Positions 1-1,987 of a stretch of 1,987 bases of DNA are shown one piece after another. Source of the DNA: Escherichia coli (GTDB lineage: Bacteria; Pseudomonadota; Gammaproteobacteria; Enterobacterales; Enterobacteriaceae); NCBI RefSeq assembly GCF_003334385.1, contig NZ_QOWN01000103.1; one strand, given 5' to 3'. The notes beneath the pieces are model-generated. The model saw nothing but the letters and a program-made list of their open reading frames with translations, ran no database searches and was not told where the DNA came from. The translations under genes were made by a program, and so were the position numbers. The first letter of the stretch is position 1. Each line of letters begins with the position of its first letter.

Positions 1-471
1 TGGTGGCTGGTCTGCCGGGGGACGATTCATAAGTTCCGCTGTGTGCCGCATCTCACCGGGCGGCGCTTTGAGCACGGGGTGACGGACTGTTACACGCTGT
101 TCCGGGATGCTTATCATCTGGCGGGGATTGAGATGCCGGATTTTCATCGCGGGGATGACTGGTGGCGTCACGGTCAGAATCTCTATCTTGACAATATGGA
201 GGCGACTGGTTTTTACCGTGTCGCACTGACAGAGGCGCAGCCTGGCGACGTGCTGCTGTGCTGCTTTGGTTCATCGGTGCCGAATCATGCCGCCATTTAC
301 TGTGGTGACGGCGAGCTGCTGCACCATATTCCTGAACAACTGAGTAAACGAGAGAGGTATACCGACAAATGGCAGCGACGCACACACTCCCTCTGGCGTC
401 ACCGGGCATGGCGCGCATCTGCCTTTACGGGGATTTGCAACGATTTGGCCGCCGCATCGACCTTCGTGTGA
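1..471 (+). CDS. K: Phage tail tip assembly protein K (gpK-like), C-terminal part only; 5' end lies upstream of the window. The portion present looks like an NlpC/P60-type peptidase domain.
   Basis: Frame 1 is open from base 1 to the TGA at 469-471 (translation begins WWLVCRGTIHKFRCVPHLTGRRFEHGVTDCYTLF... and ends ...NDLAAASTFV). The ORF track's start at 43 is a GTG inside this frame, not the true start. The translation matches my recollection of the lambda gpK C-terminus. A Cys in a D-C-Y context (codon 88-90) and a His in an N-H-A-A-I-Y context (codon 286-288) fit NlpC/P60 catalytic motifs. Lies immediately upstream of I and J, as in lambda. Confidence 0.9.
   Translation, partial: WWLVCRGTIHKFRCVPHLTGRRFEHGVTDCYTLFRDAYHLAGIEMPDFHRGDDWWRHGQNLYLDNMEATGFYRVALTEAQPGDVLLCCFGSSVPNHAAIYCGDGELLHHIPEQLSKRERYTDKWQRRTHSLWRHRAWRASAFTGICNDLAAASTFV
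350..357 (+). promoter_or_regulatory. Possible purine-rich ribosome binding site for I, lying inside the K coding sequence
   Basis: GAGAGAGG at about 350-357, roughly 11 nt upstream of the I ATG at 369. The spacing is slightly long, and initiation may instead depend on coupling to K translation. Confidence 0.3.
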
Positions 472-1040
472 AAACGGGGGCTGAAGCCATCCGCGCACTG
501 GCCACACAGCTCCCGGTGTTTCGTCAGAAACTGAGCGACGGCTGGTATCAGGTACGGATTGCCGGGCGGGACGTCAGCACGTCCGGGTTAACGGCGCAGT
601 TACATGAGACTCTGCCTGATGGCGCTGTGATTCATATTGTTCCCAGAGTCGCCGGGGCCAAGTCAGGTGGCGTATTCCAGATTGTCCTGGGGGCTGCCGC
701 CATTGCCGGATCATTCTTTACCGCCGGAGCCACCCTTGCAGCATGGGGGGCAGCCATTGGGGCCGGTGGTATGACCGGCATCCTGTTTTCTCTCGGTGCC
801 AGTATGGTACTTGGTGGTGTGGCGCAGATGCTGGCACCGAAAGCCAGGACGCCCACGGCAGCAAGTACAGATAACGGCAAACAGAACACCTATTTCTCCT
901 CACTGGATAACATGGTTGCCCAGGGCAATGTTCTGCCCGTTCTGTACGGTGAAATGCGCGTGGGGTCGCGGGTGGTCTCTCAGGAGATCAGCACGGCAGA
1001 CGAAGGGGATGGTGGTCAGGTTGTGGTGATTGGTCGCTGA
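369..1040 (+). CDS. I: Phage tail tip assembly protein I (gpI-like), complete, 223 aa
   Basis: ATG at 369-371, TGA at 1038-1040, 223 codons. Translation MAATHTLPLASPGMARICLYGDLQRFGRRIDLRVKTGAEAIRALATQLP... matches my recollection of lambda gpI in sequence and length. Overlaps the 3' end of K by 103 nt in a different frame, as in lambda. N-terminal ~90 aa is charged/mixed (reported ubiquitin-like fold in gpI), followed by a long Gly/Ala-rich hydrophobic stretch. Confidence 0.95.
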   Translation: MAATHTLPLASPGMARICLYGDLQRFGRRIDLRVKTGAEAIRALATQLPVFRQKLSDGWYQVRIAGRDVSTSGLTAQLHETLPDGAVIHIVPRVAGAKSGGVFQIVLGAAAIAGSFFTAGATLAAWGAAIGAGGMTGILFSLGASMVLGGVAQMLAPKARTPTAASTDNGKQNTYFSSLDNMVAQGNVLPVLYGEMRVGSRVVSQEISTADEGDGGQVVVIGR

Positions 1041-1057
1041 TGCAAAACATTTTATGT

Positions 1058-1086
1058 GAAACCGCCTGCGGGCGGTTTTGTCGTTT
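1058..1086 (+). terminator. Intergenic GC-rich hairpin followed by a T-rich tract; possible intrinsic terminator or mRNA stabilising / processing structure between I and J
   Basis: Perfect inverted repeat AAACCGCC (1059-1066) and GGCGGTTT (1071-1078) with a 4-nt loop TGCG (1067-1070), followed by TTTTGTCGTTT. An A-rich run (TGCAAAACATTTTATGTGAAA) precedes it. The stem is only 8 bp with 5 GC pairs and the T-tract is interrupted, so terminator strength is uncertain. Confidence 0.35.
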
Positions 1087-1088
1087 AT

Positions 1089-1092
1089 GGAG
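1089..1092 (+). promoter_or_regulatory. Shine-Dalgarno ribosome binding site for J
   Basis: GGAG located 8 nt upstream of the J ATG at 1101. Confidence 0.6.
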
Positions 1093-1100
1093 CGTGACGA

Positions 1101-1987
1101 ATGGGTAAAGGCAGCAGTAAGGGGCATACCCCGCGCGAAGCGAAGGACAACCTGAAGTCCACGCAGCTGCTGAGTGTGATCGATGTCATCAGCGAAGGGC
1201 CGATTGAAGGTCCGGTGGATGGATTAAAAAGCGTGCTGCTGAACAGTACGCCGGTGCTGGACAGTGAGGGGAATACCAATATCTCCGGCGTCACGGTGGT
1301 GTTCCGGGCAGGTGAGCAGGAGCAGACGCCGCCGGAGGGCTTTGAATCCTCCGGTTCCGAGACGGTGCTGGGTACGGAAGTGAAATACGACACGCCGATT
1401 ACCCGGACCATCACGTCTGCAAACATCGACCGTCTGCGCTTTACCTTCGGTGTGCAGGCACTGGTGGAAACCACCTCAAAGGGGGACCGGAATCCGTCGG
1501 AAGTCCGCCTGCTGGTTCAGATACAGCGTAACGGTGGCTGGGTGACGGAAAAAGACATCACCATTAAAGGCAAAACCACCTCACAGTATCTGGCATCGGT
1601 GGTGGTGGGTAACCTGCCGCCGCGCCCGTTCAATATCCGGATGCGCAGGATGACGCCGGACAGCACCACAGATCAGCTGCAGAACAAAACGCTCTGGTCG
1701 TCATACACCGAAATCATCGATGTGAAACAGTGCTACCCGAACACGGCACTGGTCGGCGTACAGGTGGATTCGGAGCAGTTCGGCAGCCAGCAGGTGAGCC
1801 GTAATTATCATCTGCGCGGGCGTATTCTGCAGGTGCCGTCGAACTATAACCCGCAGACGCGGCAATACAGCGGTATCTGGGACGGAACGTTTAAGCCAGC
1901 ATACAGCAATAACATGGCCTGGTGTCTGTGGGATATGCTGACCCATCCACGCTACGGCATGGGGAAACGTCTTGGTGCGGCGGATGT
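1101..1987 (+). CDS. J: Phage tip attachment / host specificity protein J (gpJ-like), N-terminal 295 aa only; 3' end lies downstream of the window
   Basis: ATG at 1101-1103, preceded by GGAG at 1089-1092 with an 8-nt spacer. Frame stays open to the window end. Translation MGKGSSKGHTPREAKDNLKSTQLLSVIDVISEGPIEGPVDGLKSVLLNSTPVLD... matches my recollection of the lambda gpJ N-terminus. Position directly after I with a 60-nt spacer matches lambda. Confidence 0.95.
   Translation, partial: MGKGSSKGHTPREAKDNLKSTQLLSVIDVISEGPIEGPVDGLKSVLLNSTPVLDSEGNTNISGVTVVFRAGEQEQTPPEGFESSGSETVLGTEVKYDTPITRTITSANIDRLRFTFGVQALVETTSKGDRNPSEVRLLVQIQRNGGWVTEKDITIKGKTTSQYLASVVVGNLPPRPFNIRMRRMTPDSTTDQLQNKTLWSSYTEIIDVKQCYPNTALVGVQVDSEQFGSQQVSRNYHLRGRILQVPSNYNPQTRQYSGIWDGTFKPAYSNNMAWCLWDMLTHPRYGMGKRLGAAD

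Follow-up and report, generated by a model that had tools for sequence, protein, structure and literature searches.

The K/I/J region and its intergenic hairpin

The window, a 1,987-nucleotide stretch of Escherichia coli contig NZ_QOWN01000103.1, covers the K/I/J tail-tip region of a lambda-like prophage, with all genes on the plus strand (Table 1). Its identity to phages 434 and lambda is 95.1% along the entire length, and window position 1041 corresponds to lambda 15445. The best identity to other sequenced lambda-like phages was 96.6%, prophages in many E. coli chromosomes were 98.2% identical, and the window was matched in 4510 of 5426 complete E. coli genomes. An initial annotation of this DNA had described positions 1041-1100 as the only non-coding stretch, and the list of open reading frames agrees: since K (ending at 471) and I (starting at 369) overlap, the I-J spacer is the sole intergenic stretch in the window. 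Spacer length is nearly constant: of 86 lambda-type loci, 84 have 59-60 nt. The consensus promoter scan of our toolkit found no promoter-like sites within the 60 nt, and the only open reading frame there was a non-conserved, out-of-frame one of 22 codons.

Table 1. Genes and sequence elements of the window, in window coordinates.
Feature	Position	Strand	Basis
Gene K, 3' part (tail-tip assembly protein, C40 peptidase family)	1..471	+	open reading frame list; matching phage and E. coli records name it K or a C40 peptidase
Gene I (tail assembly protein, 223 aa; TGA stop 1038-1040)	369..1040	+	open reading frame; equals lambda I 14773-15444
I-J intergenic spacer, 60 nt	1041..1100	+	equals lambda 15445-15504
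Hairpin 5' arm AAACCGCC; G-C core 1062-1066	1059..1066	+	inverted-repeat search, folding
Tetraloop TGCG	1067..1070	+	inverted-repeat search, folding
Hairpin 3' arm GGCGGTTT; G-C core 1071-1075	1071..1078	+	inverted-repeat search, folding
T-rich tail TTTTGTCGTTT, U-tract of putative terminator	1076..1086	+	sequence; nT = 3.81, d = 19
Out-of-frame ATG, by-product of the T-tract/Shine-Dalgarno junction	1087..1089	+	22-codon open reading frame; CTG in 10 of 81 relatives
J Shine-Dalgarno GGAG, 8 nt ahead of the start codon	1089..1092	+	sequence; corresponding ribosome_binding_site in the 434 record
Gene J, 5' part (central tail fibre / host specificity protein), first 295 codons, leaves the window	1101..1987	+	sequence, record matches

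The spacer contains a compact hairpin in coding-strand orientation, outside coding sequence, whose stem begins 18 nt past the I stop codon. The perfect 8-bp inverted repeat with a tetraloop that had been noticed initially lies exactly at 1059-1078, its arms AAACCGCC and GGCGGTTT being 100% complementary and 4 nt apart. The stem consists of a 5-bp G-C core (as RNA, CCGCC-UGCG-GGCGG) and three A:U pairs, and folding with ViennaRNA added a G1058·U1079 pair to give nine pairs in all. A free-energy calculation, which had been proposed as a check, found the isolated 26-nt hairpin to be stable at -15.2 kcal/mol (z = -4.05), and none of 200 shuffled sequences folded as well; the G-C core by itself contributed -9.6 kcal/mol. 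Because the full 60-nt spacer had a z-score of only -1.6, the signal comes from the compact hairpin and not from the spacer overall.

The T-rich run described after the hairpin is present as well, but it is interrupted, and its first three to four T can pair into the stem with the upstream AAA and G1058. As RNA, the tail UUUUGUCGUUU has four U followed by interruptions, with a weighted tail score of 3.81, and the consensus terminator scan of our toolkit was silent on the site. Termination efficiency may be low, given that only four U precede the first interruption of the tract and that the G-C core has just 5 bp. We also considered a terminator on the minus strand and rejected it, as the reverse hairpin is weaker (-12 kcal/mol), has no T-tail and gave no positive score.

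The toolkit's simple consensus scan missed the hairpin both in the whole window and locally, probably because greedy stem extension with G-T pairs to 1056-1081 absorbed the T-tract and left too few T. Since that scan skipped the hairpin, we wrote our own discriminant of the d'Aubenton-Carafa type, which combines hairpin dG per nt with a weighted T-tail; it is crude, and its limits are visible in lambda, where it did not pick up tR'. With this discriminant the I-J site scored d = 19 and was the sole positive on either strand of the window. No dinucleotide shuffle reached that score, whether of the local 90 nt (0 of 2000) or of the whole window (0 of 200), which excludes a chance origin of the hairpin. 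The intrinsic-terminator architecture proposed at the outset is thus borne out on the coding strand, with the qualification that of the two prediction tools only our discriminant called it. Applied to the whole lambda genome, the discriminant returned 18 sites, with the I-J site ninth; others include what we take, by their lambda coordinates, to be toop, tR2, tL2a, timm and tI.

The sole terminator site called by the toolkit scan lies inside the I coding sequence at 762-779 (GCCGGT-GGTATG-ACCGGC, then ATCCTGTTTT); it is probably meaningless, because the count is within chance expectation (one found, 1.4 expected). An Rfam search at a permissive E-value gave no family at its gathering score. 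The best overlap was STnc130 on the minus strand, which reached 19.8 bits against 55 required (E = 6.7) and aligned to the terminator end of the model only.

The hairpin has been annotated before in related phages. The phage 434 record (OL657226.1) carries a regulatory feature labeled "terminator" at 15466..15485, a position identical to that of the window hairpin, so that an independent annotation concurs with the terminator reading; in its left arm the same record marks further terminators at D-E, J-lom and lom-stf and after tfa. At the I-J hairpin, the lambda reference records NC_001416 and J02459 have no feature. In the HK75 record (HM173637), six coding-strand terminators are annotated in the late operon, one of them between the I homologue and J. 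The I-J hairpin is therefore nothing unusual, having been marked by earlier annotators as a predicted terminator. The toolkit scan overlooks it although these two GenBank records mark the same or an analogous site.

In our literature search we found neither experimentally mapped 3' ends nor termination assays for the I-J site, and no lambda 3'-end map. The small RNAs described in a lambda RIL-seq study were LPR1, LPR2 and 6S, none of them at the I-J locus, and the supplementary tables of that study contained nothing for I or J among the rows listed. Of the features used to recognize Hfq-dependent 3' UTR small RNAs, a hairpin and a U-tail are present in the spacer.

A short ATG just after the hairpin had also been pointed out. 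It exists and is out of frame with J, but it is of no consequence: it overlaps the Shine-Dalgarno sequence of J, has just T-tract upstream of it, and is not conserved. We rejected the ATG and its 22-codon reading frame as a gene, given this overlap and the CTG that stands there instead in 10 of 81 close relatives. In HK75 and Rtp, other terminator-like hairpins are followed by the same TTTATGG(A/G)G junction. The incidental ATG is explained by the way in which, at most such sites, the T-tract tail runs into the Shine-Dalgarno sequence of the next gene (T-tract-A-(T)TGG(A/G)G).

Conservation and distribution of hairpins before J

To follow the spacer among lambda-type relatives, we drew 81 close relatives from IMG/VR and from records of phages, which collapsed to 26 spacer haplotypes, and scored by column the 24 that are exactly 60 nt long. 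Only one of the 16 stem columns was variable, position 1062, where T replaces C and a G·U pair is retained; the 3' arm was invariant and the 5' arm fixed except for this position. The loop varied in three of its four columns (TGCG, TCCG, TCAG and TGCA), and the rest of the spacer in 11 of 40. Stem columns were thus variable in 1 of 16 cases versus 14 of 44 elsewhere (Fisher p = 0.05). In the T-tail the first four T are fixed and later positions vary (G/A, G/A, T/A). Fixed arms around a free loop are the pattern expected of a selected hairpin, as read from these alignments. Within the lambda type, selection could also act on the DNA sequence, because the alignment offers invariance and no true covariation.

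We then scanned 263 I-J junctions, gathered with four reference pairs (lambda-, Stx-, HK97- and Rtp/T1-type), each spacer with our own discriminant. A coding-strand hairpin with a T-tract was found in 35 of 37 unique lambda-type spacers, 39 of 50 Stx-type, 50 of 51 HK97-type and all 11 from the virulent Rtp/T1 type. The lambda-type exceptions are ES18 and a Mannheimia phage, both with 9-nt spacers, and the Stx-type exceptions are spacers that hold an opposite-strand sodC insert. Positive HK97-type spacers include those with inserts of 318-879 nt, in which the hairpin still lies 17-19 nt before the J start. No reverse-strand score was obtained with the discriminant for the lambda-type, HK-type or Rtp (41-nt spacer) elements.

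The sequence of the hairpin differs by group, being for example CAGGCACCC-TCCG-GGGTGCCTG in the Stx type, GCCACC-TTCG-GGTGGC in the HK type and CCCGCC-TAGT-GCGGG in Rtp. Its distance to the J start is 25 nt in the lambda type, 17-19 nt in the HK type and 18 nt in Rtp, and 42-106 nt in the Stx type and 42-59 nt in other T1-type phages. In the Stx-type alignment, RNAalifold identified a single compensatory pair, at which C-G changes to U-A and the intermediates U·G and C·A also occur; the joint alignment of HK-type and lambda-type hairpins likewise yielded one, from A-U to G-C with G·U as the intermediate. At one compensatory pair per alignment, this apparent covariation is thin. Among one-sided stem changes, nine wobbles are valid in coding-strand RNA only versus three in the other strand, which is suggestive and not significant. 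Conservation across lambdoid phages, another check proposed initially, thus came out in favor of the hairpin, with fixed arms and a free loop in close relatives and compensatory or wobble changes in analogous hairpins.

Similar elements occur throughout structural operons. In the lambda late region, each of five annotated gaps of 41-64 nt (D-E, E-FI, I-J, J-lom and lom-stf) has a coding-strand hairpin followed by a T-tract. The discriminant found no such hairpin in the annotated 148-nt L-K gap of lambda, a gap that is closed by the K start at 14132 in the 434 record. HK75 has seven hairpin and T-tract sites (locus L272, 1-21000), and the virulent phage Rtp has nine coding-strand sites in its 21-kb structural operon (locus L273, 5800-26800), in almost every intergenic gap. 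Most of these sites run straight into the Shine-Dalgarno sequence of the next gene (TTATTGGAG, TATGGAG or TTTATGGG). The I-J hairpin is thus not singular but belongs to a common class.

Several observations concern what else occupies the I-J junction. Accessory genes insert there, among them sodC on the opposite strand of Stx-type spacers (in locus L085, 1350-2200, sodC occupies 1540-2067 on the minus strand). The 318-879-nt HK97-type inserts include a gene for a 242-aa protein that looks signal-peptide-bearing and one for a 210-aa minus-strand protein, neither of which had a PHROG or PADLOC match, as well as members of two small PHROG families of unknown function, phrog_22477 and phrog_23209. 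One T1-type phage has an HNH homing endonuclease at the junction. Besides L085, loci with inserts are L204 (2146-2874), L211 (2184-2816, minus strand), L198 (2144-2690) and L260 (2131-2619).

The Stx-type spacers have further elements of their own. Directly past the I stop codon, an A-run is followed by a CCCGCAG...CTGCGGG hairpin (L084, 1352-1385; L086 and L087, about 1355-1390), which in some variants scores as a minus-strand terminator and would suit stopping antisense transcription from sodC-like accessory genes. A short open reading frame of 32-38 codons with an MKI..V.EL start (L084, 1392-1510; L087, 1400-1498) appears in the PhiR12_1 record as a hypothetical protein. Whether it is coding is doubtful, because the frame ends differently in each phage, though the DNA is conserved.

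In many HK97-type loci (L175-L254), I is 75-80% identical to HK75 and the N-terminus of J 95-100%, a contrast that would fit two proteins evolving at very different rates, or else a mosaic joint in or close to the I-J spacer. Two spot checks, of L057 and Stx2_KH16-043, revealed no mosaic joint at the spacer. L057, with I 97% and J 71% identical, diverges inside J, and the homology of Stx2_KH16-043 to the window begins at 1090, this phage simply having a Stx-type spacer.

Possible roles of the I-J element

We lean towards reading the I-J element as an intrinsic-terminator-type RNA element that would be passed by Q-modified polymerase and would halt polymerase without the Q modification. Once I has been transcribed, the RNA would fold into the CCGCC-UGCG-GGCGG hairpin, with A3:U3 pairing lengthening the stem ahead of the tail UUUUGUCGUUU. 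Polymerase lacking this modification would pause at the U-tract, and its transcript would be released at about 1080-1087 (lambda about 15484-15491). Q-modified polymerase, which passes terminators across the whole lambda late operon, would travel from the late promoter pR' through the hairpin, so that J would still be made from the single late message. The element would then serve as a fail-safe or insulator: unprogrammed transcription, for instance in the prophage, in early infection or from spurious starts, would be kept from entering J and the tail and accessory genes beyond it, and the 3' hairpin might incidentally protect the upstream message. The analysis shows the architecture of the element, its statistical rarity, strand asymmetry and conservation pattern, and the recurrence of analogous hairpins before J in other phage groups; we infer from these and from what is established about Q that it terminates, is overridden by Q and has the role outlined.

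[quoted passage not shown] The first proposal corresponds to a leaky attenuator, the main idea of the initial annotation, at which some polymerases would stop even during Q-driven late transcription and thereby lower J and distal mRNA relative to K, I and the upstream tail genes. The fold and the discriminant score fit such an attenuator equally, the weak, interrupted U-tract fits a low-efficiency site, and in Rtp a strong hairpin and T-tract stand 18 nt before J. Because no room for a promoter is left between that hairpin and J, Rtp J must be expressed by read-through. We nevertheless consider attenuation at the I-J site unlikely, since Q-modified polymerase is terminator-resistant over the entire late operon. 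Moreover, K and I act as assembly factors that are low in copy number or absent from the virion, whereas each tail needs three copies of J, so that a lower level of J than of K or I would serve no obvious need.

The element might instead act in message stability or processing, where it would block 3'-to-5' exonucleases or, like a cap, protect the 5' end of a processed J message, giving segments of the 26-kb late transcript different half-lives. A stable, compact hairpin soon past a stop codon is consistent with this, as is the fact that almost all intergenic gaps of the structural operons of lambda, HK75 and Rtp hold hairpins, a pattern that resembles intercistronic stabilizer hairpins. A stabilizer needs no T-tract, however, and yet a coding-strand-specific T-rich tail is found in all four groups, the sequences of which are unrelated or highly diverged; a stem of 8-9 bp is also too short for RNase III. 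The strand specificity of the T-tail leads us to favor an element of the terminator type over a plain stabilizer, which we regard as improbable.

A third idea is that the hairpin is a relic or landmark of moron docking or a linker at a module boundary, either left by or flanking inserted genes or providing short homology for the exchange of J host-range modules. Insertions do occur at the I-J junction (sodC, the HK97-type inserts and the HNH endonuclease), and morons carry their own promoter and terminator (PMC3594210). In addition, lambda-type and some HK-type hairpins are alike (CCGCC-NNNN-GGCGG-TTTT...TTTATGG) despite flanking proteins that are about 30% identical, although such look-alikes may reflect generic terminator composition. 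This origin seems quite improbable to us, as the 60-nt lambda-type spacer has no gene or promoter-like site, the hairpin is present with invariant arms in insert-free spacers, and neither spot check revealed a mosaic joint at the spacer. Finally, a hairpin that shields the J ribosome-binding site from upstream structure, with the U-rich tail as a ribosome standby or S1 platform, would suit the short fixed distances at which the hairpin, T-tract and Shine-Dalgarno cassette recurs (25, 17-19 and 18 nt), but is very improbable, because the long distances in Stx-type (42-106 nt) and other T1-type (42-59 nt) phages indicate that the hairpin is not generally tied closely to the ribosome-binding site.

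The preferred reading, a terminator-type element overridden by Q, has a boundary of its own. We know of no antitermination system in virulent T1-like phages, including Rtp, and a pure Q-overridden insulator cannot explain these phages, since they have up to nine hairpins in one structural operon. A broader view could hold because T1-like phages, which lack a known antiterminator, have hairpins at almost every gap of that operon. A terminator-like hairpin before J may be a positional feature common to lambda-, Stx- and HK97-like temperate phages and virulent T1-like phages, with such cassettes serving as general RNA punctuation of siphophage structural operons, through partial termination, 3'-end stabilization or both, and the I-J cassette doubling as a docking point for accessory genes. 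We offer this tentatively and think it rather unlikely.

Relation to known terminators

Taken alone, the I-J hairpin matters little: it is textbook-looking, lies in a well-known genome and is annotated in a sister phage. It touches a small question in the literature, namely why antiterminated late operons keep several internal terminators. To this question the survey adds that distant phage groups retain the site before J, that it stays beside J when accessory genes insert upstream, and that many similar hairpins exist in a virulent phage without known antitermination. For those engineering the host range of lambda J or inserting cargo between I and J, the spacer should be seen as holding a conserved RNA element beside the J ribosome-binding site.

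Within the same transcription unit, lambda tR' shares the intrinsic-terminator architecture of the I-J element. tR' is the terminator of 6S RNA and the target of Q antitermination, experimentally defined, just past the late promoter, and yields a discrete short RNA; the I-J element, in contrast, lies 15 kb into the structural genes and is predicted from sequence. Q-modified polymerase would be expected to pass both. Terminators associated with morons, such as the HK97 gene 15 moron and the flanks of lambda lom, are likewise hairpins in tail-gene spacers at accessory-gene junctions. Unlike a moron, the window spacer consists of the terminator-like part only, with no accessory gene or promoter.

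The closest counterparts are the annotated or identical elements at the I-J junction itself. The HK75 I-J terminator is also a coding-strand hairpin with a T-tract in a short gap of an antiterminated late operon, as found in phage L and P22 too. It differs in its stem (GCCACC/GGTGGC), in an uninterrupted tract of T6-8 and in its distance of 17-19 nt from J, the lambda-type tail being the weaker of the two. The predicted I-J terminator of phage 434 occupies the same locus, with the same spacer length and stem arms, and departs from the window only in its loop (TCCG versus TGCG) and a few flanking bases, while the I-J hairpin of lambda is identical to that of the window.
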